This document shows positions 18,179-51,325 of a stretch of DNA of 64,000 nucleotides, piece by piece. How positions within the stretch are numbered: position 1 is the first letter of the stretch; every line of letters begins with the position of its first letter. The translations under genes were made by a program, and so were the position numbers. The notes below the pieces were generated by a model. That model saw nothing but the letters and a program-made list of their open reading frames with translations. It was not told the origin of the DNA and did no database searches. The DNA comes from an uncultured Gammaproteobacteria bacterium (GTDB taxonomy: Bacteria > Patescibacteriota > Microgenomatia > Levybacterales > GWA1-39-11): the NCBI GenBank assembly GCA_964406795.1, contig CAYOTA010000001.1:77081-141080 (forward strand), written 5' to 3'.

Positions 18179-18184
18179 ACGTAG

Positions 18185-20617: not shown

Positions 20618-20631
20618 ATGGAGAGATAAGG

Positions 20632-22617: not shown

Positions 22618-22947
22618 ATGTATATCACCTCCTTTTTCAGGCTAAATGCTTAGTCTAGCTTAGCACGATTATATCAGTTCTTGTGCGTAAATGCTAAGTA
22701 ACGCTCAACATTTCATTTATGCTCAAATTTGTTCAATAATCGTTTTAATTGCTTAGTTACTGAGAAAAATCGGTCAATGTAGACCTTATTGTGTGTAAGG
22801 AGATACTTGTAGAAGTATTTTTCAGATCTACGAAGAAGTACAAATGCCTTGTCTTTTTGATTTTTGCCGTCCATCACGGCACAAGGTATCGGGAAGAGGT
22901 GTTGAAGTCTAGTCCTAAAATGGGCTCGTTTTCAAGCGTGTTGCTTT

Positions 22948-29729: not shown

Positions 29730-31287
29730 TCCTAGTCGCTTTGATGATATTCAAATCGTAATTATCTTTACCAAATTCGCACTTCCCAAGAATCATCTGA
29801 GGAATTTTCTTAATAGTTATATTTGAAAAATAATTTTCGCTCTCTGGAGCAAACGATTTGGCGCAGATTAATAAACTTTCATTTTCGGTCATTTGTGCAT
29901 GAATAGCATCGAGCTGTTCTACTGTCACGAAGCCAGTTGTAACAAAAATATAGTCCGTTTCGGTAGATTTACCCTGCTTCCAATATGCTGCCTCGTCAGG
30001 AGAATATTTAAAACCTTCATGTTTACACATAGCTGCGGACAACATATTTGCATTATATTTCTCATCAATCACAAAGTTTCCAAAACTGTCCTTGCGCAAG
30101 AGGGAAGGAGCTAAATTATAAAACTTAAATCCACCTCCACCTTTCCAACCAAGAGCTTCTGATAATGGTAACCCATCCTTACCGTCAACCACCTTCTTCA
30201 GCCTAGGTAAGCAGTGTGTTGTCGCGTGTTCGCCCAGTTCGACCCCAATCCATTTACGACCCATTTTGTGAGCGACTGACGCGGTAGTACCTGATCCTAG
30301 GAAACTGTCGAGTACCCAGTCTCCAGGCTTTGAAGCTATATCAAATATTCTCTTTATGAGTCTTTCAGGTTTAGGTGTTGAAAAAGGATCATCAGCAAAT
30401 AACTTTTTAATCTCTTGTTTAGCCTCCTGATTGTCACCAACTTCAGTTCGAAACCAAATTGTAATAGGGACAAGACCATCCTGCACCTCCGTAAGAAAAC
30501 GCTTATAGCGAGGAACATTGTTACCATTACTGCCGAAGTATATTCGATTATCGTTAATCAACTCTTCAAATCTGATTTTAGAAAATCTCCAGCTTGTACC
30601 TGCTGGAGGCATTAAGACTCTGCCTGATGGTGTGGTCAAAGGGTAAATATCCTTAGGATTTGGTGTTTTGGCATGACAAGGCCCTGATGCCCAGACTCCT
30701 CTTGGGTCGTTATCAATATTTGTATATCCTTTAGAATCATCACCATTGCGAGGCAACAAATTTCTTTGCCAAAGTAATTTATTCTTTGCGTAACAGAGTA
30801 TAAAATCGTGATTGTCAGATAGCCATCTTGCATCATTACTTCTCGTGTGTTTCTTTTCCCAAATAATTGTAGCTACAAAATTATTTCTACCAAAAACTTC
30901 GTCGCATAATACTTTTAAATAATGAGACTCTGTATCATCTACAGAAATCCATAAACTGCCCTGATCTTTATCTAAAAGATTTTTTAATATTTCTAATCTT
31001 GGGCGTACTAAATTTAACCAAATCGAATGTTCAAGGTTGTCGTCATAGTGCGTAAATGCACTTCCAGTATTATAAGGAGGGTCAATATAAATACATTTTA
31101 TTTTGCCTGTAAAATCTTGTTCTAAAGCCTTTAACGCAAGAAGGTTGTCACCGTAAATAAGCATATTTTCGGAGTTGTGGTCGCCATAAGACTTTTCAGA
31201 ATCTTCAATCAAGATTCTCGGCTCAAGCTTGAGTTCTTCATCTTTGCCGATCCATGTTAATTCCAGTTTTTGTTTTTTATTTGTCAT
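29689..31287 (-). CDS. Type III Mod N6-adenine DNA methyltransferase
   Basis: IYIDPPYN (motif IV) preceding LDSFLGSGTT (motif I): beta-class order typical of Mod. Confidence 0.8.
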   Translation of the reverse strand: MTNKKQKLELTWIGKDEELKLEPRILIEDSEKSYGDHNSENMLIYGDNLLALKALEQDFTGKIKCIYIDPPYNTGSAFTHYDDNLEHSIWLNLVRPRLEILKNLLDKDQGSLWISVDDTESHYLKVLCDEVFGRNNFVATIIWEKKHTRSNDARWLSDNHDFILCYAKNKLLWQRNLLPRNGDDSKGYTNIDNDPRGVWASGPCHAKTPNPKDIYPLTTPSGRVLMPPAGTSWRFSKIRFEELINDNRIYFGSNGNNVPRYKRFLTEVQDGLVPITIWFRTEVGDNQEAKQEIKKLFADDPFSTPKPERLIKRIFDIASKPGDWVLDSFLGSGTTASVAHKMGRKWIGVELGEHATTHCLPRLKKVVDGKDGLPLSEALGWKGGGGFKFYNLAPSLLRKDSFGNFVIDEKYNANMLSAAMCKHEGFKYSPDEAAYWKQGKSTETDYIFVTTGFVTVEQLDAIHAQMTENESLLICAKSFAPESENYFSNITIKKIPQMILGKCEFGKDNYDLNIIKATRNEAEESKEVQDEQ

Positions 31288-31291: not shown

Positions 31292-34200
31292 TTAGATTAT
31301 CTTCCATCGAATGGTAAATAATGGCTCAAGTTTTGAGTGCTGAGCCAATCGGGCTTCAACTGATTCAAGCAACTTTTCCTTCTTTAATTCTACCTCGTCT
31401 TGGGTCTCAAACAAACGCCTTCTCATCTCATTTCGTTTCTTCTCCCAATCTTTAATTTCTCTTTGGGCTTTCAATTTTTCATCTAAATTAATGATCTTTT
31501 TAGCATTTGTTTTTGCCGTTTTAATGTCAATATCAAACTTCCTTAAATCTAGCTCTATCGCTTTCTTTACATCTTCTGCCCAATTATCTAGTTTATCTAC
31601 CTCGTGATCAAAGAAACTCCCGTTACGCTCGGCGATAACGGTGGAAACAGTCTTAACATACGTATTTTCAAGTTCATCAAGTTTGGTTTTTTTATCACTT
31701 GGAACATTCAATGGAGTAGTGGACTCTGCTGATAACTGAAATATTTTCTTGATAATTTCAGGTTCTATTACATCACCAGAGTCGGTAATTGCAGAGAGAA
31801 TAATATTATCTTCTGCTTCAAATGATTCCACGGTAAAGTTTGAGATCTTCAATACTCCACTTTTTCCTACAAACCGTTTTAGTACAGATATTATGGTTTG
31901 ATTGTCGGAATAATTAAAGACAATTTCTGTTTCTTCAGCCTGTTTTGATTTAATGTCAGACAAAATACGCTGGGCAAGGGAATGTCCTGGGCGGTAAATG
32001 TGAGCATCTTCAATATTCTTACCTATTTTATAAGGGCCAGAATCAATTTCTTCGTTTGGAAATGGGTTCTTTTTTAACATGAATGAATATTCTTGTTCAG
32101 AAAATTCAGCATTATCGCCAAGATAAAATCTTGTGGTATCCCAAAGCCAACGGTTATACATGTCAAGATACATCGTAGTTTCTTTAAGATTTAATTTAAG
32201 TTTTTCGTGTACCTCAGCGTCAAAGTTCTCCAAAAGTGTTTGTCTAGTCTCGGAAAGATTATTTTTGATACTCACATCCATTTCCTCCTGAAGTTTATCG
32301 AACGCAGTATTAATCTCGTCTGTGGTACGACAATCTTGATAGATTGCTGCAATACGCTTTTCAAAGTCCACTCCAGACTCGATATTACCCAAAACTTCGT
32401 CACTAGCTCCGAAAACACCTTTAAACAATTTGAACTTTTGATCTAAAAGGTCATATACGCGACTATCAGCTGCGTTTTTTCGATTCACAAAATTAATTAC
32501 AACCACATCATGCTTCTGTCCGTATCGATGACATCTGCCAATGCGCTGTTCGATACGCTGTGGATTCCACGGCAAATCGTAGTTAATAACTAAGGAACAA
32601 AACTGTAAGTTAACACCCTCCGCTGCTGCCTCGGTGGCGATCATAATATCTGCTTCATCATGGAAGTAGTCGATAAGGGCAGAACGCATGTCCGCAGTTT
32701 TTGACCCAGTAAGTTTATCGGAGTCTTTATTTTTTTCAACCCAATTTTTATAAATTTCTTTTGATTTAGGATCGTTGTTCGAACCGTTAAAGAGGACGAT
32801 TTTATCCTGATAGCCATTATCCGGCAAAAGAGTCTCTGATAAATATTTTTGTGTAATCGTGGATTCAGTAAAAATAATCGCTTTTTGTTTTGCGCCAAGC
32901 TCTTTCGTCATCTCAAAACCTTTTTTAAGTGCTATCAGAAGCGCGTCCCCTTTAGAGTTAGTGAAAATAGCTTTTGCGAGATCTCTAAATCTTTCCAAAT
33001 CGATCTTTTCCTGTTCCATTAGTGGAATATCGTCCTGGGTGTATACCTTAGGTTTTTTACCTTTTTCTGTATCACCATCGTCACCTTCTTCATCATCAAT
33101 CCATTCATCAGATATTTCATCCAATCCCTCAAAATTTTGGGCAATCTCGGTTGTATCAAACTCAACAGGTACAGTTGCCAATGTCTTCTTCGTTTCATCA
33201 ATCAGTAATCCTAGTTTTGCTACGAGATTATTAAGGGTACTTGCTATGGCAAAGGAAGACGAAGCAAGTAACTTTCTTAAAATAAGTGTCATGAGCTGTC
33301 GCTGGCTCGAAGGAAGGGCAAACAATGTCGGCCGTTGTAAATATTCAGACATACTGTCATACAGCTCAATCTCTTGTTTCGTAGGGATGTAGTCCTGAGT
33401 AATTGGTTTACGTTCAGTGTATTTAATATATTCCAATACCTGACGTCTTAATGTCCGAATACAGACCGACTTTAGACGACTTCGTAAATCAGTAAAAAGA
33501 AGTTGTTTTGGATCGACCATTTGCTCATCTTCTGCCAGTCCATTTTCTCTTATAACAATACCTTTACCCGTGTCACCCTCTTTTGCCCACTGGATACCAC
33601 TTATATGTGTAGGAATTTCCTGCTCTCTAGGTGCATGCGAGTAATTTGCTTTGAAACTTTTTAAATCACCAAATACGTGATCATCGATAATGCTTACGAG
33701 ACCATATAGTTCAAGTAATGAATTTTGTAACGGTGTTGCTGTGAGCAGAATCTTGGGCACATCAGACAAAGAGCTTTTTATTTCTCGAGCTATCTTGTTA
33801 CTTGTCTTGTAAACATTACGTAGTCGATGCGCTTCATCGATTACTGCTAAATCCCATTTAGTTTGTTTTACGTATGGAGCTTTTCCTCTAGCAAAATGAT
33901 ATGAGCAAATAATTATCTTATCTTCCTGATCAAAAGGGTTGAGATTTCCGTCTTTAATAGATTGATTAAATGATTTGGCTTCCAATATCACCGAGGGCAA
34001 AAAGAACTTTTCTTGTAATTCCATGTTCCATTGCTTGCGAAGCGCAGCGGGAACAATCAAGAGAATCTTTCTTTTTCGCTCTGCCCATTTTTGAGATAAA
34101 ACAAGACCAGCCTCGATTGTCTTTCCTAGTCCAACTTCATCGGCCAAGATTGCACCCATCGATAAAGGGGATTTAAATGCAAATAATGCGGCTTCAATTT

Positions 34201-34327
34201 GGTGTGGATTAAGGTCAACCTGCGCATTAGAAAGAGTGGAAGATAATTTTTCAAGGCTATCTGAAGAACATCGCTTAGTTAACTCGTAAGCAAAGTATTT
34301 TGCATGATATGGCGTAATTTTTAACAT
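31292..34327 (-). CDS. SNF2-family helicase (1011 aa) co-operonic with Type III mod-res
   Basis: ADEVGLGKT, DEAHRLRN, HelicC block NYDLPWNPQRIEQRIGRCHRYGQ; 5-nt gap to mod. Confidence 0.85.
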   Translation of the reverse strand: MLKITPYHAKYFAYELTKRCSSDSLEKLSSTLSNAQVDLNPHQIEAALFAFKSPLSMGAILADEVGLGKTIEAGLVLSQKWAERKRKILLIVPAALRKQWNMELQEKFFLPSVILEAKSFNQSIKDGNLNPFDQEDKIIICSYHFARGKAPYVKQTKWDLAVIDEAHRLRNVYKTSNKIAREIKSSLSDVPKILLTATPLQNSLLELYGLVSIIDDHVFGDLKSFKANYSHAPREQEIPTHISGIQWAKEGDTGKGIVIRENGLAEDEQMVDPKQLLFTDLRSRLKSVCIRTLRRQVLEYIKYTERKPITQDYIPTKQEIELYDSMSEYLQRPTLFALPSSQRQLMTLILRKLLASSSFAIASTLNNLVAKLGLLIDETKKTLATVPVEFDTTEIAQNFEGLDEISDEWIDDEEGDDGDTEKGKKPKVYTQDDIPLMEQEKIDLERFRDLAKAIFTNSKGDALLIALKKGFEMTKELGAKQKAIIFTESTITQKYLSETLLPDNGYQDKIVLFNGSNNDPKSKEIYKNWVEKNKDSDKLTGSKTADMRSALIDYFHDEADIMIATEAAAEGVNLQFCSLVINYDLPWNPQRIEQRIGRCHRYGQKHDVVVINFVNRKNAADSRVYDLLDQKFKLFKGVFGASDEVLGNIESGVDFEKRIAAIYQDCRTTDEINTAFDKLQEEMDVSIKNNLSETRQTLLENFDAEVHEKLKLNLKETTMYLDMYNRWLWDTTRFYLGDNAEFSEQEYSFMLKKNPFPNEEIDSGPYKIGKNIEDAHIYRPGHSLAQRILSDIKSKQAEETEIVFNYSDNQTIISVLKRFVGKSGVLKISNFTVESFEAEDNIILSAITDSGDVIEPEIIKKIFQLSAESTTPLNVPSDKKTKLDELENTYVKTVSTVIAERNGSFFDHEVDKLDNWAEDVKKAIELDLRKFDIDIKTAKTNAKKIINLDEKLKAQREIKDWEKKRNEMRRRLFETQDEVELKKEKLLESVEARLAQHSKLEPLFTIRWKII

Positions 34328-34328
34328 A

Positions 34329-34499
34329 TTAATTCTTTTTACTTATGAATTTTTCTAAATCGGCTTTTCTATATCGCCTAGTTCGTTTTTCTCCAATTCG
34401 AATAGCTATGAGAATGCCCTTTTTGTCCCATATACGCAAAGTATTTACATGAACCTTTAAGATTTGTGCCGCTTCTTTGAGAGTTAATAGTTCTTCCAT
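34329..34499 (-). CDS. Small excisionase-family (AlpA/MerR-like) HTH protein, 56 aa. Not in the ORF track (below the size cut-off).
   Basis: Manual translation MEELLTLKEAAQILKVHVNTLRIWDKKGILIAIRIGEKRTRRYRKADLEKFISKKN; paralog of 39591..39773; stop 2 nt before the SNF2 start. Confidence 0.55.
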   Translation of the reverse strand: MEELLTLKEAAQILKVHVNTLRIWDKKGILIAIRIGEKRTRRYRKADLEKFISKKN

Positions 34500-34618
34500 A
34501 TTGATTTACCTACCAATTGATAACAATATTATATAGAGTTAGCTAGGCTTTTTCAACCATTTTTATACGAAAAAACACCTCAAAAAGGCCGAAGTCTATG
34601 TAGTATAGGAGGAATTCC

Positions 34619-34831
34619 TTAAACGAAGTCACTCATGGAAGATTTGAGGGCTTTTGCTACTTTTTGGAGTACTTCAAGAGAAGGAGCATGTCTACCTTGT
34701 TCAATATATCCCATATAGGCTCGACTGATGCCTGCTCTTTCAGCTGCTTCCTCCTGGGTAATCCCAATTTGTTTCCTTCGCTTCTGGATTTTCTTCCCTA
34801 TCGCTTTTGGAAGCGTTGCGTTTTTCCTCAT
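34619..34831 (-). CDS. XRE-family HTH transcriptional regulator
   Basis: IGITQEEAAERAGISRAYMGYIEQGRHAPSLEVLQKVAKAL. Confidence 0.75.
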   Translation of the reverse strand: MRKNATLPKAIGKKIQKRRKQIGITQEEAAERAGISRAYMGYIEQGRHAPSLEVLQKVAKALKSSMSDFV

Positions 34832-34947
34832 GTATATATTGTCTAAAACACTCGATCATTACTCCACTTAGCTACACTAAGAGTTTAGCCTTGAATACGG
34901 GGGTTTTTTATGCTAAGGTTGACTAAGCAACTAACTTATGACAGGAG

Positions 34948-35358
34948 GTGAACAAAATGGGATTATTTGGAAATAAACAACAAACTGGAGAAAAACCGTT
35001 GTATGAAACAAGTTATGCCGGGTTTTGGATTAAAGTTTTTCCTAATAGGATTGAGTTTAAAGCCGGAGTTGGTTCACAAAGTATTCCAATAAACCAGATA
35101 GCGAGTGTTCAACTACCTATGATGGGCATATGGAAAATCACTTTAGAAACAACTGGAGGAAAGAAGTACGCCGTACCAACTTCCAAAAAGAAAGAAGTTC
35201 AAAAGGCTATTTATGAGGCACAATCACAATTTTCTGGGAACGGAAGAGCTACTGAAGATGTGACTGGCGAAATTGTAAAGCTAAACGATTTAAAGGAAAA
35301 GGGAATTTTATCTCAAGAAGAATTTGATAAAAAGAAAAAACAACTTCTTGGAATTTAA
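34948..35358 (+). CDS. Bacterial PH-like domain + C-terminal SHOCT domain protein
   Basis: C-terminal IVKLNDLKEKGILSQEEFDKKKKQLL SHOCT motif. Confidence 0.5.
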   Translation: MNKMGLFGNKQQTGEKPLYETSYAGFWIKVFPNRIEFKAGVGSQSIPINQIASVQLPMMGIWKITLETTGGKKYAVPTSKKKEVQKAIYEAQSQFSGNGRATEDVTGEIVKLNDLKEKGILSQEEFDKKKKQLLGI

Positions 35359-35359
35359 T

Positions 35360-36907
35360 TTAAAACTTCATATCCAGTGTGATTGGTTCAATATCAAATC
35401 CTAAATCATTCATGTGTTGCAAAGACCAAGTTAATCCAGGGTGAGGATCAGGTTCTGGTGTAGATACTTCGCCCGGTTTACGCCTGCTTGATGGACGATC
35501 TGAATCTATGACTTTTGACATAAGTAATGTAAAAGCATCAGCCAAATCATCATATTTTTCCACACCAAAATTTACTAATTGACCTATTAATACTTCTGCA
35601 CCTGTTCTTGGAAAGAATACTTTCCCTTGTTGGATAAGGGGAGAAACCAAGGATAGTCTTGACCTTTTATCCATATTTGGAATTCTCACTTCTTCAGCAA
35701 GTACGTGTTCTACTGTCAGTTGTTGCGCTGCGGCACTTTGGTAACCGACACTTTCTATGTAGGCCACAGGATACGGTCTATAACCTACTTTAAGTTGCTC
35801 CGTTAAGGTTTTTATTGCCTGAATTGTTTGTGGAAAATCTAATTTCTTGTTTAAGATATATGGCAAAATGTAGACTTGAAGATTGTCGCCGTAACCCACT
35901 ACATACGCTGGAACTAAGGCCGTGAAGTTTGCCCATTCCAAAAGTGAAATAGCTAAGTCAACGCCAATCGCTACAAGCCTGGCTGGATAACGATCAGTAC
36001 TAGGAAGAATATCGTAATATTTTATCCAAGAGCCTTTTACAATTCGGTCTTCGTCAGCAATAATTTTTAACAAGAACTCCCTGTACCAAGCTGATTCATC
36101 AGAAATCTCTTTCCTTTTAGCTTCAATGTGTGCCATCGTTGGAAATTTGCCAGGCCAAGCAATATTTCCGTTATCGTCTAACAATGGAAATTCTTTATAA
36201 ATACCGCCTGCCCCTCCTGATTGGATATTTTGCTTAATTCGCATCATCAGCGAATCCTCATGCAAGAGGTTACCTACTGTAATTATTCTGGTGCCACTAT
36301 CTCCAATTGGCTTTATCTCACCAGAAAACCAGTTCCAGAGATTATCTCTGCTTTCTCTGGTCTTAACTGATTCCAGATCTTCAACATCGTCGATGATAAT
36401 AAGATCAGGTCGGTATTGTCGATGTCTGAGTCCTCTGATTCTTTCACTTTGAGATATGGCTGAAATTCTGGCGTCGTGGTGCGGGATTACGAGTGAATTG
36501 GATCGCCATTCGTCAGCTACTTCTGAAAATGGTCCAAAATCTCGTATCAATAACTCATTTGATGTAAGTTCTTGTTTTATGTTTGTAAGGATTTGTTTTG
36601 CCAATCCCTGGGTCAGGCTCACGAGCAGGGTATATTTCTTGCTTGGCTTACCAACCATTGCCCAGATAGGTAGTGCAAGAGTTGCTATTGTTGATTTAGC
36701 CGAACCACGAAAAGCAGTAATGGAAATCTTTTCTAATTCTTCGTTTTGTATGAGATTAAAAATTTCCTTTTGAAAATCAGCAGTCGGACAAGTAATGTAG
36801 TGAGGAAAATAAGTGACAAAAAACCAATAAAAGTTCTCCTGCGTTAATGCTCTTCGAAAATCAGGATTATCCTGAATTTGTTTTATGATTTGTTGTTGAT
36901 CATTCAT
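35360..36907 (-). CDS. Phage terminase large subunit-like protein (ATPase + nuclease)
   Basis: Walker A-like AFRGSAKST, Walker B LIIIDDVED, nuclease motif IGVDLA; 515 aa. Confidence 0.65.
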   Translation of the reverse strand: MNDQQQIIKQIQDNPDFRRALTQENFYWFFVTYFPHYITCPTADFQKEIFNLIQNEELEKISITAFRGSAKSTIATLALPIWAMVGKPSKKYTLLVSLTQGLAKQILTNIKQELTSNELLIRDFGPFSEVADEWRSNSLVIPHHDARISAISQSERIRGLRHRQYRPDLIIIDDVEDLESVKTRESRDNLWNWFSGEIKPIGDSGTRIITVGNLLHEDSLMMRIKQNIQSGGAGGIYKEFPLLDDNGNIAWPGKFPTMAHIEAKRKEISDESAWYREFLLKIIADEDRIVKGSWIKYYDILPSTDRYPARLVAIGVDLAISLLEWANFTALVPAYVVGYGDNLQVYILPYILNKKLDFPQTIQAIKTLTEQLKVGYRPYPVAYIESVGYQSAAAQQLTVEHVLAEEVRIPNMDKRSRLSLVSPLIQQGKVFFPRTGAEVLIGQLVNFGVEKYDDLADAFTLLMSKVIDSDRPSSRRKPGEVSTPEPDPHPGLTWSLQHMNDLGFDIEPITLDMKF

Positions 36908-37334
36908 GACTATTTTCTTTGGACGGAATAAGTGCCGCCATTTCTATTGCTTTATTGAGTAATTCTTTCTGTTCATCTGTCAGGTTAATTTCTTTGTTAT
37001 AGCCAGCGGTAGTCACCTCAACTCTGTTGCGATAGGAATCATGATGTGTCTTAAGCCAGAAAATTATCGAGGTCATGTTTTTATCCTTAATGGCACTAAT
37101 TAGCTGGCTCTCGGCTAGATCATTCACAAGCAAGTTGCCTTCTTGCAAGGCTTCATCTGCCTGTTTTGAAAACTCTTTATCTTCAGCTCTCCATCGATAA
37201 TATGTCGAACGTCCTACATTGGTTTTCTCACAGGCCACCTGAACTATGGGAGTTTTCTTTAGTTGCTCTACCAGTAGATCTTGTTCAACTTTTATACGAT
37301 CTCTAACTGTAATTTGATTATCTTTGTTGTTCAT
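36900..37334 (-). CDS. Phage terminase small subunit-like HTH protein
   Basis: HTH ACEKTNVGRSTYYRWR; ...IIFWLKTHHDSYR typical of TerS; overlaps terL by 8 nt. Confidence 0.5.
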   Translation of the reverse strand: MNNKDNQITVRDRIKVEQDLLVEQLKKTPIVQVACEKTNVGRSTYYRWRAEDKEFSKQADEALQEGNLLVNDLAESQLISAIKDKNMTSIIFWLKTHHDSYRNRVEVTTAGYNKEINLTDEQKELLNKAIEMAALIPSKENSHE

Positions 37335-38074
37335 AGTTTTTTAGCATTTTTACCTGTAACTTTTTCAAAACGATCCATGACGACCTGACAGTATTCTGGA
37401 TCAAGCTCGATTCCCAAACATCTACGCCTAGTTTGCTCACAGGCTATTAACGTAGATCCCGAACCTAGAAAAGGGTCATATACCCAGTCGCCGATTTTTG
37501 AACTATTTAGAATAAGATTGCGAAGTAACCCGACTGGCTTCATCGTTGGGTGCAACGGACTCTTATTTGGTTTAGGGTAAAACAAAACGCTTTTATCCTG
37601 GGATTTCTGAAACCTATGAGTGCCGAACCACCCATAGGCTATGAGCTCATGCATGGGGAGATAGTTAAGTCTTCCGAGTACCGCATGGTTTTTGATCCAG
37701 ATAAGAAGTTGGGCAAACTTGAATCCCTGTTCAAGCAGTCCTTCTCGCATAGAAAAGAGCATTTTGTCGGAATTAAACAAATAATAGCTATTTTTTTCAG
37801 CAAGATGTAGTTTAACTAATTTCAACCATCCACTTGTAAATTCTTTATATTCCTCATCAGTTTGCAAATGGTCATTTAGGATAGTTTTCCTTTTCCCAAC
37901 TTGGTTAAATCCAATTTTGTTTTCAATAAGCGCCACAGCGTACGGCATATCGGTGAGGATCAAAGAAACCTTCCGATCACTAAGAATCTTTTTAACAATT
38001 TCTGGATCCAATGCATCGCCACAAGCGAGATAGTGTGAACCTAGTTCAAAGATGTCATTCTTTTGGATTAACAT
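37331..38074 (-). CDS. DNA N6/N4 methyltransferase
   Basis: ILTDMPY (motif IV), VYDPFLGSGSTLIACE (motif I). Confidence 0.75.
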   Translation of the reverse strand: MLIQKNDIFELGSHYLACGDALDPEIVKKILSDRKVSLILTDMPYAVALIENKIGFNQVGKRKTILNDHLQTDEEYKEFTSGWLKLVKLHLAEKNSYYLFNSDKMLFSMREGLLEQGFKFAQLLIWIKNHAVLGRLNYLPMHELIAYGWFGTHRFQKSQDKSVLFYPKPNKSPLHPTMKPVGLLRNLILNSSKIGDWVYDPFLGSGSTLIACEQTRRRCLGIELDPEYCQVVMDRFEKVTGKNAKKL

Positions 38075-39338
38075 ATTTTGCCTCCTTTCCAGTCAATTGT
38101 TGATACCGAGCGACAATAACATCACAAAAGATCGGATCAATTTCGCAGAGGAACACCCTGCGTTTCAACTGCTCGGCGGCTACAAGTTGACTTCCTGAAC
38201 CTCCAAAGAGGTCAAGAATAATATCTCCTGGCTTGGTACAACGACGGAATGCTTTCTCATATAAAGTAGGGGGCTTTTGTGTAGGATGTTCGTAGTCCTG
38301 TCCATTTACACGCTTCACGAGCCAGATATTAAATAAGTCCATGATGTCATCGGGAAGTCGATTACCTGTTCCAATCTCTTTATTGAGGACTTCGCTGATA
38401 TTGTGAACAGAAGCTGATAGGTAAGGACTGCCGATAGTTCCGTAGACGCAAGGCTCGAAAACCTTATTAAATGCAATTTGGGGAGTCATGTTGGAATTAT
38501 TCTTGATCCAAAGACAAACTCGTTTGTTATTAATTCCTAATTCTGAATACAAACTTTGTAGCATCCCAATGTATGTTTCATCACACCAACAAAAGATGTG
38601 ACAATCGGGGTAAATAAATTGCAAGCCGTTTTGAAGAACAGTTTTTAGAAATTCTCGGTACTCACTGTCAGATTTTTTGTCAGTAGCTCTGCCTCCATAT
38701 TTTCCTTTTGTGCTCACGCCCTTGTTGTAACTAAGTCCGATGTTATAAATCGGATCATAATTAAGCATATGGATTTTATGGTCATCAACTAACTCCTTAA
38801 CCACTTCAGAACTGGTACTATCCCCGCAATACAATCTGTGTTGCCCTAGCAAAATTAGATCACCCAGTTTTGTTCTTGGATTTCTTATCTTTGTCGCCTC
38901 TACCTCAGCATCAAAATCATCATCTTCAACACCAAGCGCATCGTCAAAAATATGGGTGAAATCAAGATCGTCAAAACCAGATTCCAAAAGCAGTTCCATG
39001 TCAAAGCTTTTTAAAAGTTCGTAATCCCAATCGCCAGATACGCGATTCAAAGTCAAATTCAATTTCTTCTCTCTTTCTACATCTTCGATGTCGATAAAAT
39101 TTACAGGAACCGTTTCGTATCCTAAGTCCTTGGCAATTTTTAATCTTAGATGACCTGCGATTACGGTTCCGTAGCGAGATTTATTGCTATTAACTAGGAT
39201 TGGAATAACAAACCCGTTTTCCTTAATACTTTTCGTCGCATCATGTATAGTCTTTTCATACCAAACACGAGGATTGTAACCAGCAGGGTTTAAATCGTTG
39301 ATAGGAACTTCAACTGTTTGAAGAGATATTTGTTTCAT
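38055..39338 (-). CDS. ParB-like nuclease domain fused to a DNA methyltransferase (phage-type)
   Basis: N-terminal ParB/Srx fold (VPINDLNPAGYNPR...IAGHLRL); C-terminal ILDLFGGSGSQLVAAE motif I. Confidence 0.75.
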   Translation of the reverse strand: MKQISLQTVEVPINDLNPAGYNPRVWYEKTIHDATKSIKENGFVIPILVNSNKSRYGTVIAGHLRLKIAKDLGYETVPVNFIDIEDVEREKKLNLTLNRVSGDWDYELLKSFDMELLLESGFDDLDFTHIFDDALGVEDDDFDAEVEATKIRNPRTKLGDLILLGQHRLYCGDSTSSEVVKELVDDHKIHMLNYDPIYNIGLSYNKGVSTKGKYGGRATDKKSDSEYREFLKTVLQNGLQFIYPDCHIFCWCDETYIGMLQSLYSELGINNKRVCLWIKNNSNMTPQIAFNKVFEPCVYGTIGSPYLSASVHNISEVLNKEIGTGNRLPDDIMDLFNIWLVKRVNGQDYEHPTQKPPTLYEKAFRRCTKPGDIILDLFGGSGSQLVAAEQLKRRVFLCEIDPIFCDVIVARYQQLTGKEAKYVNPKE

Positions 39339-39532
39339 ACTGTCAATTTACCACGCGTTTTTTTGAAGACCCGGGTGACACGGAGGGCAAGGTGAAACCC
39401 TGGGTTGTATAGAGAATTGGTTGATATGTTGGGATAAATCGATTTTAGATTTTAAAAAATGATTAACAAAAATACCCCTTGACAAGGTTTTCGATAAAAA
39501 TCTTTCCCCTTAATTTATTGACCTTAAGTAGA

Positions 39533-39561
39533 TTGCTATTTAGTCGATATTTTTGTATGAT
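39533..39561 (+). promoter_or_regulatory. Candidate sigma70-type promoter for the HTH/giant NTPase operon
   Basis: TTGCTA -35, 17-nt spacer, TATGAT -10, about 30 nt upstream of the ATG at 39591. Confidence 0.3.
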
Positions 39562-39590
39562 ATTGTTAACAAATGGTAAGTTAGGAAGAC

Positions 39591-39773
39591 ATGAACAAAA
39601 CAGAAAAAATTCCAGAGCTGCTAACCCTAAAGGAAACATGCGACCTTCTTAAGGTTCATGCCAATACGCTTAGACAGTGGGATAAAAAGGGTATCTTAGT
39701 TGCGGTACGTTTCGGCGCGCGAAAAGATCGAAAATATAACAAAGAAGATGTCTTAAGGTTACTAAAAGGGTAA
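39591..39773 (+). CDS. Excisionase-family (AlpA-like) HTH protein, 60 aa
   Basis: LLTLKETCDLLKVHANTLRQWDKKGILVAVRFG; 3-nt gap to the next gene. Confidence 0.65.
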   Translation: MNKTEKIPELLTLKETCDLLKVHANTLRQWDKKGILVAVRFGARKDRKYNKEDVLRLLKG

Positions 39774-39776: not shown

Positions 39777-42700
39777 ATGGAAGATATTAATTGGAGTGCT
39801 TTTAAGGCGAAATTCGATGGAAAAGAACAAAAGTCGTTCGAGAGGCTCAGTTACCTCCTTTTTTGTGACGAGTTTAACAAACCATTAGGGTTGTTTCGAT
39901 ATAAAAACCAGGCTGGCATTGAAACAGAACCAGTTGAAGTTGACGGGAAAAATATTGGCTTCCAGGCAAAATTTTATGAAACATCTCTTGCTAGTAATAA
40001 AGCTGAAATAATAGACGCACTTAAGAAAGCAAAAGATAAAAACTCCGAACTTAATAAAGTTATTTTCTATACAAACCAGGAGTTTGCGGAAAGTAGCAAG
40101 AAAAACAAAAAAGAACCTGACTATAAAGTAGAGATTGAAAATTATGCCAAATCATTAGTTTTAGAAATTGAATGGAGAACTAAGAGTTATTTTGAGTCAT
40201 CTCATGTAAGTATTAAAAATAAAAACATTGCCCATCATTATTTTAGCCTTGAAAAAAGCACACTTGACTTAGTTACTGAATTAACTCAACACTCGGACTC
40301 AATCATCTCTCCAATACACTCATTAATTGAATTTAATAACCAAGAAATTAAAATACAACGTGCTGAGACTCTTGCATTTCTCATTAAAAAACTTAAGGAT
40401 TTTCCATTAGTTATTTTGAGTGGCGAAGGCGGATCAGGAAAAACAGCGATTATAAAAGACTTTTATGATGCGAAAAAGAATGAATCACCCATTTTTATAT
40501 TTAAGGCTACAGAGTTTAATATATCGAATATCAATTTGCTGTTTAAAAACTACGGGGAATTTACTCTAGCTAGCTTTAATGAAGAATTATCTGGATATTC
40601 TGAAAAATTTATTGTAATTGATTCTGCTGAAAAACTGTCAGACATAGAGGATACTCAAGCTTTTCAAGAATTTTTAACTACAACACTCAGCAATAAATGG
40701 AAAATAATCTTTACAACACGATATAACTACCTTGATGACTTGAAATTTCAACTTACCAACATTTATGGAAGAAACTTTCATTTAATTAATATTGAAAATC
40801 TTGATCAGAAAGCCCTTAGTGATTTAGCATCTAAGTATGGTTTTAAATTGCCTCAAAACGACAAGTTTATAGATCTGATAAAAAATCCATTTTATCTTAA
40901 TGAATATTTGCAAAATTACACGACTTTAGGTGAATCAACAAACCCTACTGAATTTAAAGAACTCATATGGAACAAGCAAATATTGGGAAATTTCCAAAGA
41001 AATAACACGCATATAAAAAGGGAGGAAGTATTTCTAAAAATCGCAGAAAAAAGGGCAAATGACACTTCATTCTTTGTAAATACAGCTGAATTCGACAGTG
41101 AAATTCTTCACAAGCTTGAATCAGATGAGTTAATCAAACATGATCCTCGCACGGGTGGGTATTTTATTACGCATGACATATACGAAGAGTGGGCGTTAAA
41201 CAAAATAATTGATAGAGAGTTTTATAAAAATGAAGACAAACTCGATTTCCTAAAATCCATCGGCATTTCATTACCAGTTCGTAGAGCCTTTAGAATTTGG
41301 CTTTCAGAAAAACTTGCTGTTAAACCAAAGGAAATAGAGTCTTTTATCGATACCGTAATAAAAACTAAAGAAATCGAACCTTTTTGGAAAGATGAATCAA
41401 TTATATCTGTCCTATTGTCAGACTATGCTCAAACATTTTTTGAATTGTATGAGCAGAAAATATTAGCCAATGATTACGAGCTATTGGTCAGAATTATTTT
41501 TCTCCTGAGAATCGCGTGTAAAGAAATTGATGAGACACTACTACATCTCTTGGGGCTACAGAAGACTGATGGTATTGCTTTAAAAACTATTTTCACAAAA
41601 CCAAAAGGTGCAGGATGGAATTGCGTTATAAGTCTAATATTTAAGCATAAAGAGGAACTTGGCTTGACCAAGATGTTTATCATTACGTCTTTGTTGGCTG
41701 ACTGGAATAGCAAGTTTAAGAGGGGTAATACCACAAAAAATGCGAGTCTAATTGCTCTCTATTTATATGAACAATTTATGGATCAAGGTGGCTATTGGTC
41801 TGGATCAAGAGATGACAAGAAGGAAGAAATAGTAAATGTTATTTTGCAAGGTTCCGCTGAGATTAAAGAAGAGTTAAAAAAAGTTTTTGATACTGTAATA
41901 GCTGAAAAACAAACAAGCCACAGAGATAAATACTACCCATTAGTTGAGGTAATGTTAGGATCAATCTCTAGTGCCGCGGAAATTACAATGAACTTACCAG
42001 AATATGTTATTAAAATAGCTGACTTATATTGGTATAGACCGCCTGTTAAAGAGCTTAATCCATACGAACATCATTCAATTGGCGTTGAACAACACTTCGG
42101 CTTAAGTGAGATGCATGACTTTAACTACTTCCCCCCTAGTGCGCTTCAAACACCAACATTTCTACTTTTAAGATACCATCCTCAACTTGCAGTAAATTTC
42201 ATATTGTCATTTACAAATAAGACAGCTGAATGTTATTCAAAATCAGAATTTGGAGACGAGGTTGAAGAGGTGGAAATTTTTTTCGATGAATCATCATCCA
42301 TAAAACAACTAATTAGTAATCGTTTATGGAATATGTACAGGGGTACTCAGGTTTCCACCAGTCTTTTAGAGTCAATACATATGGCACTTGAGAAATGGCT
42401 ACTCGAATTCGCCAAAATTGTATCTGGTGAGGTTTTAGAGAGTTGGTGCCTATATCTACTCAAGAATTCGAAGTCTGCATCGATTACAGCAGTAGTGACA
42501 AGTGTCGTTCTAGCTAACCCAGATAAATTAAGCAAAGTCGCCATTATTTTATTTAGGTCTAGAAAATTGTTTTTTTATGACACAGGTAGATATAGCTTAG
42601 ATCAAACTGCCAGTTTTCAGTATTCAATAGGGAGCGGTTTGGGTCATGGAGATATGTATAGAAACGAAAGAATTAAAACGTGTGAAGATCCACATAGGAA

Positions 42701-44513
42701 ACAATCATTAGAATATTTGGCAGTAAATTATCAATTTTTTAGATCTGATAAAGTTGATGAAAAAACAGCCGAAAACAGACTAAAAGAAGTTTGGGATGTT
42801 ATCGATAAACATTATTCCGAACTTCCTGATGAACAAAGTGAGACTTCAGAAGACAAGACGTGGAGGCTGTATCTTGCGAGAATGGATAAAAGGAAAATGA
42901 ATCCTAAGCTTGAAAGAAAAGATGGACAAGTACTAATAAAGTTTAATCCTAAGATTGAACCGAAGTTGAGGAAGTACAGTGAAGATTCTTTGAAGAAAGG
43001 TAATGAGGCCTCAAAATATGTCCAACTTAAACTTTGGTCTAGCTACAGATTTGAATACAAGAAAGAAGAATACGAAAAATATGAAAAGTATCAAGATAAT
43101 CCAACGCAGGTTATATCCGATGTAAAAAAGATTGTTAGTAAGATAAAAAGAAATAAAGATGATAACTTCTCACTGCTGAATAGAACAATTCCAGTATTTT
43201 CATGCGCTGTTTTAGTGCGAGACTATTTTGATCAATTAAGCCCTAAGGATAAAGAGTATTGTAAAAAAATCTTACTAGAGTTCGCTTTTCTTCCACTTAA
43301 TCCTCAATACCGCTTTCAAATTTCTGATGGAGTTGAACCAGCAATTGCAAGCCTTCCCTTATTAATAAAAAACTTTCCCTCTGATAGAACAGAGACAAAA
43401 GCTTTATTACTGATGCTTTTAGTTAGTTCGTGGGGACATATTGAAGTATTTGTTATCAAAGCGATATTACATCAACTATGGAAACTGAGCTTTAAAGATG
43501 CACAGTCCTTATTATTTGGCTATATTTTATTAAAACCTAAATACGATCTTCTTAGAGAAGAATTAAGAAAAGAAAGTTATAAGAATTATCATTATGAGGA
43601 TTTAGAACCTAAGTTAATGTTAGCGTTCACTCAAAAGTATGAGAAGGAAAGCGAATCTGTTGTTGTGGATGCGATTTCGTACAAGGACTTAGAACCTTTA
43701 GCAGATTTAGAAAACGATGTCTTGAATACAATATTTGAACTAATTCCTTTAAGAACTTCAGATGAAGAACACAAAAAAATAATTGGTCAATTATTTCCGA
43801 TTTTTTCTAAAAAAATGTTCAAAGAGCGTGATGGAGATAGCTATCAATTAAGGCAAAGGTTTTTTGAGAAGATGTCTTATTTTCTACTCACATCTAGTAA
43901 AGATGAGCTGCATACGCACTTAATCCCGTTCATTGAAAACTTCACCCTCTCGAGGGAAACGGCAGACTTTTTTCAAGCACTAGTATTTGCTGAAGATTCA
44001 CTAAATGAATATGAGAACTTTTGGACTATATGGAACAATTACTACGATAAACTAAAGGATGCTTGTCAGGCAGAAAGACCCAATTTTTATCTTAAAGAAA
44101 TTATTCGTAACTATCTACTTGCTGGGTCATTTTGGAAGGAAGAAGCGAAAGAGTGGCATTCTTTAAAAGATCGTGAAAAAAGCTTTTTTAGCAATGTTGC
44201 TAATGAAATGGGTAAGTTCCCGACGACCCTTTATTCCATTTCTAAACTTTTAAACGAAATTGGAAGCAAATTCTTAGATGATAGTATTTACTGGATAGCA
44301 ACTATCATAGATAAAAATCCTGAATTAACCTCTGCTGATTTGGATACCAATACCATTTATTATCTTGAAAATTTAATTAGAAAACACATTCTGGTAGACA
44401 GACAAAGTATTAAAAGAAACACTAAAGAAAAAAAGGCTGTTATTTCCATTCTTAACTTCCTTGTTGAGCATGGTTCTCCAACGGGTTATTTGCTAAGAGA
44501 GGATATTCTTTAA
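39777..44513 (+). CDS. Giant Mrr-like restriction-endonuclease domain + STAND/NACHT NTPase + ~1200-aa C-terminal helical region (Avs-like antiviral NTPase candidate)
   Basis: N-terminus FERLSYLL...AGIETEPVEVDGKNIGFQAKFY...VIFYTNQEF (Mrr_cat-like D...QxK); Walker A ILSGEGGSGKTAII; Walker B FIVIDSAEKL; NACHT TTR motif KIIFTTRYNY. Confidence 0.6.
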   Translation: MEDINWSAFKAKFDGKEQKSFERLSYLLFCDEFNKPLGLFRYKNQAGIETEPVEVDGKNIGFQAKFYETSLASNKAEIIDALKKAKDKNSELNKVIFYTNQEFAESSKKNKKEPDYKVEIENYAKSLVLEIEWRTKSYFESSHVSIKNKNIAHHYFSLEKSTLDLVTELTQHSDSIISPIHSLIEFNNQEIKIQRAETLAFLIKKLKDFPLVILSGEGGSGKTAIIKDFYDAKKNESPIFIFKATEFNISNINLLFKNYGEFTLASFNEELSGYSEKFIVIDSAEKLSDIEDTQAFQEFLTTTLSNKWKIIFTTRYNYLDDLKFQLTNIYGRNFHLINIENLDQKALSDLASKYGFKLPQNDKFIDLIKNPFYLNEYLQNYTTLGESTNPTEFKELIWNKQILGNFQRNNTHIKREEVFLKIAEKRANDTSFFVNTAEFDSEILHKLESDELIKHDPRTGGYFITHDIYEEWALNKIIDREFYKNEDKLDFLKSIGISLPVRRAFRIWLSEKLAVKPKEIESFIDTVIKTKEIEPFWKDESIISVLLSDYAQTFFELYEQKILANDYELLVRIIFLLRIACKEIDETLLHLLGLQKTDGIALKTIFTKPKGAGWNCVISLIFKHKEELGLTKMFIITSLLADWNSKFKRGNTTKNASLIALYLYEQFMDQGGYWSGSRDDKKEEIVNVILQGSAEIKEELKKVFDTVIAEKQTSHRDKYYPLVEVMLGSISSAAEITMNLPEYVIKIADLYWYRPPVKELNPYEHHSIGVEQHFGLSEMHDFNYFPPSALQTPTFLLLRYHPQLAVNFILSFTNKTAECYSKSEFGDEVEEVEIFFDESSSIKQLISNRLWNMYRGTQVSTSLLESIHMALEKWLLEFAKIVSGEVLESWCLYLLKNSKSASITAVVTSVVLANPDKLSKVAIILFRSRKLFFYDTGRYSLDQTASFQYSIGSGLGHGDMYRNERIKTCEDPHRKQSLEYLAVNYQFFRSDKVDEKTAENRLKEVWDVIDKHYSELPDEQSETSEDKTWRLYLARMDKRKMNPKLERKDGQVLIKFNPKIEPKLRKYSEDSLKKGNEASKYVQLKLWSSYRFEYKKEEYEKYEKYQDNPTQVISDVKKIVSKIKRNKDDNFSLLNRTIPVFSCAVLVRDYFDQLSPKDKEYCKKILLEFAFLPLNPQYRFQISDGVEPAIASLPLLIKNFPSDRTETKALLLMLLVSSWGHIEVFVIKAILHQLWKLSFKDAQSLLFGYILLKPKYDLLREELRKESYKNYHYEDLEPKLMLAFTQKYEKESESVVVDAISYKDLEPLADLENDVLNTIFELIPLRTSDEEHKKIIGQLFPIFSKKMFKERDGDSYQLRQRFFEKMSYFLLTSSKDELHTHLIPFIENFTLSRETADFFQALVFAEDSLNEYENFWTIWNNYYDKLKDACQAERPNFYLKEIIRNYLLAGSFWKEEAKEWHSLKDREKSFFSNVANEMGKFPTTLYSISKLLNEIGSKFLDDSIYWIATIIDKNPELTSADLDTNTIYYLENLIRKHILVDRQSIKRNTKEKKAVISILNFLVEHGSPTGYLLREDIL

Positions 44514-45817
44514 AAAAGCGATAAATTTTCATTTATCTTTATTTGATTTAGACCTGCAAGCAGCAGTGATATTAAATAATATCTTCTGTCCGGTTTTGCA
44601 TAAAGAATCATGTTTTGAAGGTACATTTTGGTTGTAGTGTCGTCTATTTCGCTAAATTTCATTGGATAAATTGAGAGTTTGATTGTGCTTTCGCTCATGC
44701 GGGCGTGAATATCCCATCGCATCCGTTCAAATCTGACTATCTCGTCCTGAATCTGCTCTGGAAAATTGATTTTTGAAACATCGACGGAATCAATGAGCTT
44801 AGTTATATCCCGGAAGACATCTTCTTCTAAGACATATTCAACCTTACATTTTTTATCTTTTTGACGACTACATCTGTAGTAAGTATGAAAATTCGATCTG
44901 CCGTTTTTAAGTTTCCGAATTTTACTCTGGCGGTGCACTGGCGACCCACAACGAGCGCATTTTAGAAATCTGGCTATCGAATACTTATCTCCACGGGCAT
45001 ATGTATTGCGGAATGGTCGGAGTTTTGCTTGAACCTGATCATATCGTTCTAGGGTGACGGTAGGTTCGTAAATTCCTTGATATTCAATACCCTTAATCAC
45101 AAATCTGCCAGCATAGAATTTGTTTCGGAGTATTCCATAAATAACACTCTGAGGAATGTGTTTTCCTTTGGCACTTCTTAAAGAAGTATTCTTATTGATC
45201 CATGCAATTACTTTTTTTACGGGTATTCCGTCCGCTACCTTCTGGAATAACTTTGAAATGGGTTCTCCTCGCTCTGGATCGATGGAGATTTTACGTACTC
45301 CACCAATCGTTTCACTGATATAGCCAATTGGCACTGGCCCCGGCCAATATCCGAGCTGGCACTGATTTCGTATCCCGCGCCGAATGTTTATGCTTCGATT
45401 ATCGTTCTCTAGCTTAGCTTGACTGCCAAGGATCATTAAGAGGAACTTCTCATTAGGATTGTCGGTAAAGGTCTGTGAGTACGTCACGATCATCTTAAGC
45501 TTCCCCTCGTCCATCAGATCGACCAAGATACCAAGGTCTCCAGCGTTCCTTGATAATCTGTCTGGCGACCATGTAATAATGCCGGAGTAAATACCTTGCT
45601 CGATTTCTTTAAGTAGTTTGTTAAAAGTTTCTCGTTGTCCGCATTTTTTAGCAGTGTGACTTTCCCGATAGATTTCGCCAATTTCAAGATTATCTCGTTG
45701 TGCTATCTTTTGCATTTCGTTTACCTGCGAGTCGATAGAGATTGCCTGTCTTTCGTCCGACTCCGATGATTTTCTGGCATAGAGGCAAAACCGTATGTGC
45801 GAATCTTGTTTTTCCAT
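44510..45817 (-). CDS. Large serine recombinase (more divergent paralog)
   Basis: YARKSSESDERQAISIDSQ catalytic region; zinc ribbon CARCG...YYRC. Confidence 0.9.
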   Translation of the reverse strand: MEKQDSHIRFCLYARKSSESDERQAISIDSQVNEMQKIAQRDNLEIGEIYRESHTAKKCGQRETFNKLLKEIEQGIYSGIITWSPDRLSRNAGDLGILVDLMDEGKLKMIVTYSQTFTDNPNEKFLLMILGSQAKLENDNRSINIRRGIRNQCQLGYWPGPVPIGYISETIGGVRKISIDPERGEPISKLFQKVADGIPVKKVIAWINKNTSLRSAKGKHIPQSVIYGILRNKFYAGRFVIKGIEYQGIYEPTVTLERYDQVQAKLRPFRNTYARGDKYSIARFLKCARCGSPVHRQSKIRKLKNGRSNFHTYYRCSRQKDKKCKVEYVLEEDVFRDITKLIDSVDVSKINFPEQIQDEIVRFERMRWDIHARMSESTIKLSIYPMKFSEIDDTTTKMYLQNMILYAKPDRRYYLISLLLAGLNQIKINENLSLF

Positions 45818-46004
45818 TCAACTCAACACATACCGGGAATATTTGAGGAATGCAAGCTAATTTTAGATAAATATATCAAAGTACATCATACCTAAATTGT
45901 GAGACACCCTTTTTTATAGTGTCCCATTTGTCTCATTTTTGATAGAATTAGCCTCGAAAGCTAATTGGGCTATAGGGATAAAAAGGGTCTAGACCGTACC
46001 CCAC

Positions 46005-46176
46005 AGCAAAGACGGGCACCCCTAGGTGACCGTATTCCCTATTTAGCTTGAAGGGGCTTGCTAAAAGCCCCTTCAAGACGGGAAACATTCGGACCGACAA
46101 AACACCCCCAAGTTCTCAATATTAGGCTAGGGTTCACATATGTCCTACTTAACCGGAGGAATTAGGATTCGAACAG
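46005..46176. repeat. Right copy of the ~170-bp degenerate direct repeat (att-like)
   Basis: See 19682..19856; contains perfect hairpin GAAGGGGC-TTGCTAAAA-GCCCCTTC. Confidence 0.55.
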
Positions 46177-46192
46177 TAGATTTGCAATCCGA

Positions 46193-51321: not shown

Positions 51322-51325
51322 AGCA

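Follow-up and report, generated by a model that had tools for sequence, protein, structure and literature searches.

We analyzed a 64,000-nucleotide stretch (hereafter, the window) of contig CAYOTA010000001.1 from assembly GCA_964406795.1 (positions 77,081 to 141,080), whose source organism is assigned to the Patescibacteriota by GTDB, and we asked what is encoded by a short operon of phage-type packaging genes near its middle. Four overlapping genes lie on the minus strand. The first gene of the operon (38055-39338) encodes a 427-amino-acid DNA methyltransferase (MTase) with a ParB_N domain (Pfam ParB_N, E = 5e-10; N6_N4_Mtase, E = 1.5e-23), or ParB-MTase. It is followed by a second N6/N4 DNA MTase (37331-38074; 247 amino acids; Pfam N6_N4_Mtase, E = 4e-31), by a TerS-like small terminase subunit with an N-terminal helix-turn-helix (HTH) and a helical core (36900-37334; 144 amino acids; identified by PHROGs and hhalign), and by the large terminase subunit TerL, with an ATPase and an RNase H-like nuclease (35360-36907; 515 amino acids; identified by phrog_38 and by its fold). 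The overlaps are 20 nt between the two MTases, 4 nt between MTase and TerS, and 8 nt between TerS and TerL. An initial annotation, made from the sequence alone, had proposed these same four overlapping genes, and gene calls, Pfam, and PHROGs all bear this out. The ParB-MTase matches several phage families in PHROGs (best, phrog_498, E = 1e-94), and the second MTase is also found in many of the related loci described below.

TerL does not match any family in Pfam; its identification required PHROGs, a profile search of the PDB, and a fold search. In PHROGs, it belongs to phrog_38, "terminase large subunit" (E = 3e-78). A profile of 36 homologues matches the T7 terminase gp19 in the PDB: the Walker A motif AFRGSAKS aligns with AFRGIGKS of gp19, and the Walker B motif DDVE aligns in both. 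AFRGSAKST and DDVE are invariant in the 36 homologues, as in an additional-strand catalytic E (ASCE) ATPase, and the invariant residues include R67, K71, S72, T73, D173, D174, and E176. The nuclease residues D317, E385, D454, and D457 are invariant as well, and homologues of this TerL bear the Pfam domain Terminase_6C. An AlphaFold (AF2) model, with a predicted local distance difference test score (pLDDT) of 83.4, has the two-domain fold of large terminases, and its top Foldseek matches are large terminases: PhiV-1 TerL (E = 1.5e-19), T4 gp17, T7 gp19, D6E, and HK97. Single domains are also matched separately (the ATPase, and the nuclease by RB49 gp17 and G20c). The initial annotation had described the ATPase and nuclease motifs as intact, with the caveat that careful alignment might reveal them to be degenerate; they are intact across all 36 homologues.

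The TerS-like protein lies just upstream of terL, has an N-terminal HTH, and is homologous to known TerS proteins. It has weak matches in PHROGs (phrog_309, E = 1e-8; phrog_4044, E = 1e-7), and when its profile was compared to the TerS of related phages that carry portal genes, hhalign gave a probability of 93.7% (E = 2e-7). The comparison to a second phage cluster (c32) was not convincing (40% probability), and no terminase was matched when the TerS profile was searched against PDB sequences. Compared to relatives at 86-95% protein identity, the ratio of nonsynonymous to synonymous substitution rates (dN/dS) is 0.035-0.069 for TerL and 0.08-0.14 for TerS, so both genes are under strong purifying selection.

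To look for structural genes, we scanned nearly all open reading frames (ORFs) of at least 100 amino acids in the window, including every ORF that is not nested, with Pfam or PHROGs. None of the scanned ORFs belongs to a portal, capsid, or tail family, as the initial annotation had already noted. It had also stated that nothing follows terL except for a convergent gene encoding a "PH-SHOCT" protein. This 136-amino-acid accessory protein (34948-35358, plus strand) does contain a SHOCT domain (Pfam, E = 8e-8), but no PH domain was detected; the gene is at the equivalent position in the closest relatives (loci L001, L004, L005, and L015). Beyond it, 13 further ORFs follow on the terL strand. They comprise a pair of small HTH genes, nine cargo genes, one large serine recombinase, and one 243-amino-acid ORF, and this string ends next to a tRNA-Gln. 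The recombinase (20632-21969, minus strand; 445 amino acids; Pfam Resolvase, Recombinase, and Zn_ribbon_recom) is the last conserved gene of the string and is presumed to be an integrase. The 243-amino-acid ORF (19886-20617, minus strand), which has no family in Pfam, PADLOC, or PHROGs, separates it from the integration junction at tRNA-Gln(CTG) (19614-19687, plus strand; ARAGORN; Rfam tRNA, 55.7 bits), whose 3' end points toward the island.

On the other side of the operon, a divergent gene (39591-39773, plus strand) encodes a 60-amino-acid MerR/HTH_17 regulator that resembles AlpA or excisionases (Pfam MerR_1, E = 3e-9; HTH_17, E = 3e-9; phrog_66, "excisionase and transcriptional regulator"). 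It is found at the equivalent position in L004, L015, L035, L044, and other loci. The divergent control region between the two transcription units (39339-39590) contains promoter-like hexamers on both strands (39469-39442, minus; 39533-39561, plus), but a promoter scan of this region did not find hexamers above the shuffled-sequence background. From these features, we read the island as spanning about 26 kb from tRNA-Gln (19.7-46.0 kb), followed by what seems to be a solo-recombinase remnant to about 47.5 kb. The flanking genes are chromosomal: they encode Lon, a DsbD-type protein, MarR, glycerol-3-phosphate dehydrogenase, an FGGY kinase, a multicopper oxidase, and Mrp subunits.

We then compared the operon to its relatives. 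Among 50,697 phage records, the best match to TerL is only 27.5% identical, so there is no close relative in that collection; in metagenomes, TerL has thousands of relatives. We sampled the best 80 of at least 545 relatives from species-representative genomes, 80 loci from IMG/VR, and 80 loci from metagenomes, inspected about 10 kb of flanking sequence at each locus, and clustered the ORFs. (Names of hosts are the labels of metagenome-assembled genomes, or MAGs.) Among the best 80 of the at least 545 genome relatives, 55 have names from the candidate phyla radiation (CPR) or Patescibacteria, including a Beckwithbacteria genome whose TerL is 85% identical and a Patescibacteria MAG whose TerL is 95% identical. 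A relative from the Hainich groundwater wells (L165) has a TerL that is 95% identical. Across the three sequence collections, 206 loci have the same type of cassette, and nearly all of these are from CPR/Patescibacteria.

The layout of the cassette is conserved. An MTase is upstream of TerL in all 150 loci that could be scored, and TerS is upstream of TerL in 165 of 197 loci. A serine recombinase follows TerL on the same strand within 3 kb in 78 of 145 loci and within about 10 kb in 65 of 94 loci. It begins less than 100 nt from the stop codon of TerL in 30 of 89 loci, and in 17 it is more than 5 kb away, with cargo between. A divergent S24 repressor, similar to LexA or CI, is within 3 kb upstream in 15 of 77 loci and is also present in 14 of the 80 metagenome loci. 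In contrast, the structural clusters of related phages (portal, protease, capsid, adaptor, and tail) were found in none of the 206 cassette-type loci, and no other gene family among the clustered ORFs is conserved along with the cassette. Thus, a phage-derived operon of ParB-MTase, with or without a second MTase, TerS, and TerL has been kept intact without virion genes, in an architecture that is conserved, under selection, associated with tRNAs, linked to a recombinase, and controlled by regulators. We did not find an account of an MTase-TerS-TerL-recombinase cassette in the literature, which is not proof that none exists.

Three side observations concern the cassette genes themselves. First, in ten loci (L041, L068, L074, L081, L090, L095, L096, L101, L103, and L218), terL is duplicated in tandem, with about 520-560 amino acids for each copy. 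These loci are mainly labeled as Peribacteria or Peregrinibacteria, and in about half of them the usual TerS is missing or is swapped for a 72-amino-acid ORF. Second, in L058, L082, and L215, TerL was called as an extended ORF of 689-720 amino acids, which may be a fusion to an extra domain. Third, of the 80 "viral" contigs retrieved from IMG/VR, 60 (L085-L144) are cassette-type islands without virion genes, and some contigs carry two cassettes (L109/L112, L110/L119, and L120/L128). These contigs look like fragments of host genomes that were scored as viral owing to the terminase.

Could the operon be the decayed 5' end of an ordinary prophage, as the initial annotation suggested, having lost its portal, capsid, and tail genes through deletion or through a break in the assembly? 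The module does have a phage origin. At 36-45% identity to TerL, we found 19 loci from real tailed phages, with genes for portal, protease, major capsid, adaptor, and tail downstream of TerL; some of them also carry the MTase cluster and a homologous TerS, so the nearest portal-linked TerLs share the order MTase-TerS-TerL. There are also signs of accretion or decay elsewhere in the island, namely, three recombinase genes and a probable solo-recombinase remnant. However, in a neighbor-joining tree of TerL, the two kinds do not mix: 20 portal-linked TerLs lie in one clade, of 21 tips, and 97 of 97 recombinase-linked TerLs lie in a second, of 143 tips. The tree's sample was picked by similarity to the window, so the tree shows a clean split rather than proving a single origin; still, the TerLs of the cassette form a clade that is separate from those of portal-linked phages. 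The low dN/dS of TerL (0.04-0.07) and its invariant catalytic residues rule out a decaying remnant, and the identical truncated architecture recurs across the 206 loci. Nor was a prophage split by the assembly, because chromosomal genes flank the island on both sides within the window. We consider a decayed prophage to be extremely unlikely.

Several lines of evidence suggest that the islands are mobile. Wherever a tRNA comes after the recombinase, the first one is encoded on the opposite strand (34 of 34 loci), and a tRNA is within 300 nt of the recombinase in 13 of 80 loci, as compared to about 0.65 loci expected from the density of tRNAs in these loci. The tRNAs at the junctions vary (Gln, Ser, Glu, or Asp). 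In L023, a 34-nt direct repeat (33 of 34 positions identical) bounds an element of 9.56 kb, and one copy abuts the 3' end of a tRNA-Ser. This element encodes two MTases, TerS, TerL, the recombinase, and a few small genes, and at 9.56 kb it is far too small to hold a virion module. Long direct repeats that bound the element were found only in L023 and in the window, which is not surprising because serine recombinases use short attachment (att) cores. Also, L008 (Woesebacteria, CP011214) has the same layout as 11497-21969 of the window, with the recombinase, tRNA-Gln(CTG), and Lon protease (75% nucleotide identity for lon), so the same integration site is used in a distant genome of the Microgenomates.

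We also considered whether the cassette might belong to a complete virus whose virion genes are too divergent to recognize or lie elsewhere in the element. Many ORFs in the islands of CPR loci have no family, and the contig of L034, described below, may be circular. This possibility is nevertheless very unlikely. Structural genes would be conserved along with the cassette, and no other family is; PHROGs readily detects the structural genes of the related phages; and the L023 element is too small. In the window, nearly every gene of the island is nonstructural, and the exceptions (the ORFs of 243, 56, and 54 amino acids) have no structural match.

Among known systems, the island works most like the phage-inducible chromosomal islands (PICIs), including the Staphylococcus aureus pathogenicity islands (SaPIs). 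Both are site-specific integrative islands, of about 10-27 kb, with an integrase at one end, a divergent regulator (merR, alpA, or stl type in PICIs; MerR/HTH_17-like or S24 repressor here), their own TerS, no structural or lysis genes, and accessory or defense cargo. In terms of the core features listed for PICIs (PMC10085698), the integrase is present, as a large serine recombinase that ends the TerL-strand string beside the 3' end of a tRNA, and so is the divergent regulator (the MerR/HTH_17 gene in the window and the S24 repressor in relatives), whose regulatory role is predicted. Two core features of PICIs are lacking. No primase-replicase family was recognized in the window's island or in the conserved upstream clusters, where unannotated ORFs remain, and TerS is not the sole packaging gene, since the cassette island carries TerL as well. 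The islands differ from PICIs in other ways: no capsid-morphogenesis gene was recognized in the cassette island, the ParB-MTase is an obligatory core gene, and the integrase is a large serine recombinase, while PICI integrases are usually of the tyrosine type. The hosts are also different: the cassette islands are in CPR bacteria, while the satellites that have been surveyed are mostly from Proteobacteria and Firmicutes, with some from Actinobacteria (PMC10085698).

Capsid-forming PICIs (cfPICIs) carry terS and terL of phage origin in lineages that are separate from phages, and they are defined by 11 core genes that include the capsid, head-tail adaptor, and connector (PMC10085698). The cassette island resembles them in carrying both terS and terL, in a lineage apart from phages, but the capsid, adaptor, and connector genes are present neither in the window nor in any of the 206 loci. 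The PLE of Vibrio cholerae encodes a large serine recombinase as its integrase, defends its host from phage, and is not known to carry virion genes. To our knowledge, PLE lacks a terminase, has its own replication initiator, and is known from just one species with one helper phage. PLE's use of a serine recombinase (PMC9618062) is shared with the cassette island, and no other component of PLE is. Finally, the packaging modules of tailed phages (ParB-methyltransferase, terS, and terL) have the same gene order and homologous proteins, at 36-45% identity for TerL; in the phages, the genes after TerL encode portal, protease, capsid, and tail proteins, while in the island TerL is followed by cargo and by a serine recombinase beside a tRNA.

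On balance, the evidence tips toward the explanation that the four genes are the conserved core of integrative islands of CPR/Patescibacteria, and that these islands are helper-dependent phage satellites. The initial annotation had listed a PICI-like satellite, or a deliberately retained module, among its possibilities, and the recombinase, the junction at tRNA-Gln, and the conservation across CPR favor that option. If the island is such a satellite, then derepression would lead the recombinase to excise it. The control might lie with the divergent S24 repressor in many relatives and with the MerR/AlpA-like and XRE regulators in the window. The MTases would mark or protect the island's DNA, and TerS and TerL would cut this DNA and pump it into the procapsids of a co-infecting phage from the related portal-bearing lineage; relatives of the cassette type and of the portal type were found together in four IMG samples. 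In a new cell, the recombinase would insert the island beside a tRNA gene. In phage P1, cutting at the pac site depends on methylation; by analogy, the obligatory methyltransferase may gate pac cleavage.

Some of our observations count against a satellite. A helper phage, packaged DNA, an excised circle, or an empty site was not observed. When we sought terminal repeats in 244 loci, only L034 had one, so there are no documented circular forms. The L034 contig (17,334 nt) has a 44-nt terminal direct repeat and may be a circular form, but the repeat could also be an assembly artifact. (L034 encodes two MTases, TerS, TerL, two recombinases of about 580 amino acids, a protein with the toxin domain Ntox44, and unannotated genes; no structural family was found in it.) No replication module was recognized, and Pfam assigns no family to the genes immediately upstream of the MTase. 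About 30% of loci lack a recombinase within about 10 kb; for instance, in L001 the his operon is directly next. The names of the remaining genomes among the best 80 relatives are other or unspecific, mostly from one bulk project. We know of no satellite family that has TerL but lacks capsid genes. Also, the PADLOC matches of the cargo are given without a background rate; in other loci, PADLOC mostly labels what lies between TerL and the recombinase as type I, II, or IIG restriction-modification or as MADS components. The final such point is that TerL has a tighter link to the MTase (150 of 150) than to the recombinase (65 of 94), which would also fit a self-contained function for the MTase and the terminase.

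That tighter linkage is one reason to consider that the terminase was domesticated as a function of the host or the island, with MTase, TerS, and TerL acting together in defense. One variant would be similar to restriction: methylation would mark self DNA, and TerL would translocate and cut unmarked DNA. In the other variant, the proteins would interfere with packaging by competing for, or mis-loading, the procapsids of an invading phage. Domestication would fit with the swapping of the MTase module between close relatives, which is reminiscent of the specificity modules of restriction-modification systems; with the location of the cassette, which is always amid defense genes; and with the absence of recognized genes for replication or capsid remodeling. 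On the other hand, TerL does not match any PADLOC model, and a full packaging motor has been kept along with its cognate TerS, rather than a nuclease alone. ParB-MTase fusions are usually orphan methylases of phages, and the match of this one to phage families in PHROGs argues against a defense role. Defense genes are usually expressed constitutively, and the frequent presence of a divergent S24 repressor over the operon is a better fit to an inducible mobile element. Overall, we consider domestication to be unlikely, and it partly overlaps with the satellite explanation, as packaging interference is how a satellite would behave anyway.

The islands are mosaic. Relatives whose TerL is 93-95% identical share only 34327-37282 with the window, and the window's MTase pair is closest to that of L030 (74% nucleotide identity) instead of those in the loci with the closest TerL; the module is therefore mosaic. 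Similarly, between the window and L005, identity at the protein level is 95% for TerL but just 61% for TerS, and the two loci have unrelated MTases. A recombination breakpoint lies close to the 5' end of terS (37047-39340 versus 34327-37282). Mantel tests for co-inheritance with TerL were weak (rho = 0.32 for TerS, 0.15 for MTase, and 0.12 for recombinase), and they say little beyond mosaicism because the sequences are saturated at about 48% identity. The cargo on either side of the cassette is unrelated between close relatives, and there are two fast-changing cargo slots: one from TerL to the recombinase, and one upstream and divergent. Besides the systems labeled by PADLOC, other loci carry reverse transcriptases, an OLD-family nuclease, and genes for resistance to copper and heavy metals, so the cargo is rich in defense genes but also includes metal resistance. 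In one island (L004, 17515-19197), a type I HsdM in the cargo has an N-terminal MerR/HTH_17 domain; this domain also occurs as separate genes of 55-66 amino acids that head cargo operons in the window and in other loci.

In the window, the first slot begins with an XRE-type HTH regulator (34619-34831; 70 amino acids; Pfam HTH_3, E = 3e-16), whose cluster is present in 35 of 164 loci, mostly directly downstream of TerL. All of the genes in this slot are on the minus strand. Next is a small MerR/HTH_17-like ORF (34329-34499; 56 amino acids), recognized by clustering, at the head of the downstream cargo string; it clusters with the 60-amino-acid gene at 39591-39773 and with the leaders of cargo operons in other loci. 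The cargo that follows includes a DrmD-like SNF2 helicase (31292-34327; PADLOC DrmD, E = 1e-206; Pfam), the Mod (29689-31287; PADLOC MTase_III, E = 3e-193; Pfam) and Res (27051-29729; PADLOC REase_III, E = 6e-185; Pfam) subunits of a type III restriction-modification system, a UvrD-like helicase (24995-26983; Pfam; GajB/RTasHel-like in PADLOC), a Cas4-like PD-(D/E)XK nuclease (24238-24993; Pfam; Cas4-like in PADLOC), a trypsin-like protease (22948-24234; Pfam), and a DUF4352 protein (22072-22617; Pfam). DUF4352 recurs in 24 loci, usually close to the recombinase or TerL. A 54-amino-acid ORF (22713-22877; cluster c25) is, in several loci, directly before the DUF4352 gene or the recombinase, and it could be a recombination directionality factor.

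The second slot holds a STAND NTPase (39777-44513, plus strand). This 1578-amino-acid protein is a full-length match to PADLOC's model for Avs4, an antiviral STAND family (PDLC02169; 1979 bits; residues 1-1578 versus 1-1570 of the model). The initial annotation viewed a terminase near an Avs-like gene as unexpected and asked whether TerL is tolerated, regulated, or used as bait or decoy. The two genes are 2.9 kb apart and are divergently transcribed, and, among solved structures, the TerL model comes closest to a TerL in complex with Avs3. However, the families that sense TerL are Avs1-3. Avs4 is the portal-sensing family, and TerL is sensed by others among Avs1-4 (PMC13581612). Since the island lacks a portal gene, no self-activation is expected. 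Furthermore, Avs4 homologues were not found in any of the other 164 loci tested, where the slot is filled by unrelated cargo, and the Avs4 gene has a G+C content of 0.32-0.34, as compared to 0.38-0.40 for the packaging operon and its neighbors, which suggests a separate acquisition. We give next to no credence to the idea that TerL is retained as bait, decoy, or regulator for this protein. Because Avs4 is paired with the cassette in no other locus tested, their adjacency is due to chance co-carriage in a variable cargo slot, with Avs4 as cargo and not as a conserved part of the module. The stop codon of the Avs4 gene overlaps that of a convergent recombinase gene by 4 nt.

This convergent gene encodes the second large serine recombinase of the region, at the distal end of the island (44510-45817, minus strand; 435 amino acids; Pfam), and a third lies just beyond it (46193-47521, minus strand; 442 amino acids; Pfam). 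All three recombinases cluster together. The last 6 nt of tRNA-Gln are also the start of an att-like repeat of about 190 nt (copy A, 19682-19870; direct-repeat families D4 and D7, and pairwise alignment), and a second copy, which aligns with the first, is directly 3' of the third recombinase (copy B, 46004-46190). The copies are about 75% identical and contain GC-rich segments that resemble hairpins. Each copy is 3' of a recombinase paralogue: the recombinases at 20632-21969 and 46193-47521 are 73-77% identical at the nucleotide level, at constant spacing. The repeat may be a recombinase-proximal att arm or a structured element of another kind. We considered a fragment of tmRNA, but the repeat does not match any family in Rfam, and this idea was dropped. 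The third recombinase is probably left over from a tandem element. L021, L104, L120, L128, and L141 also have extra recombinases upstream of the cassette, and multiple recombinases per island suggest tandem accretion.

Just past the island, 49657-52081 encodes a multicopper oxidase and a DUF4396 protein. Homologous oxidases come immediately behind the recombinase in L056 and L076, and the islands of L245 and L246 carry genes for resistance to copper or heavy metals. The oxidase and DUF4396 genes of the window may be older island cargo. At the start of the window, positions 1-1800 encode the C-terminal end of a cargo gene from a 556-amino-acid family, a DUF5677 protein, and a GIY-YIG nuclease. 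Over its first 400 nt, the window matches, at 70-79% identity, cargo genes found upstream of the cassette in L004, L005, L006, L052, and L060, and another such island may be located just beyond the start of the window.

The CPR/Patescibacteria account for a large share of bacterial diversity, and their mobile elements and interactions with phages are almost unknown. It is plausible, although we suggest it more tentatively than the satellite explanation itself, that these islands are an undescribed, phylum-wide class of satellites: terminase-only islands that parasitize the capsids of CPR phages and that are a main vehicle for defense and resistance genes in Patescibacteria. If so, the concept of a satellite would extend to elements that keep the whole packaging motor and none of the shell. 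As a practical matter, lone terminase genes in MAGs should not be scored as prophages or viral contigs. The signature of MTase, TerS, TerL, and serine recombinase beside a tRNA is a handle for finding defense and resistance cargo, and it would aid in identifying the phages of CPR bacteria and in building tools for integration and delivery in these hard-to-manipulate organisms.

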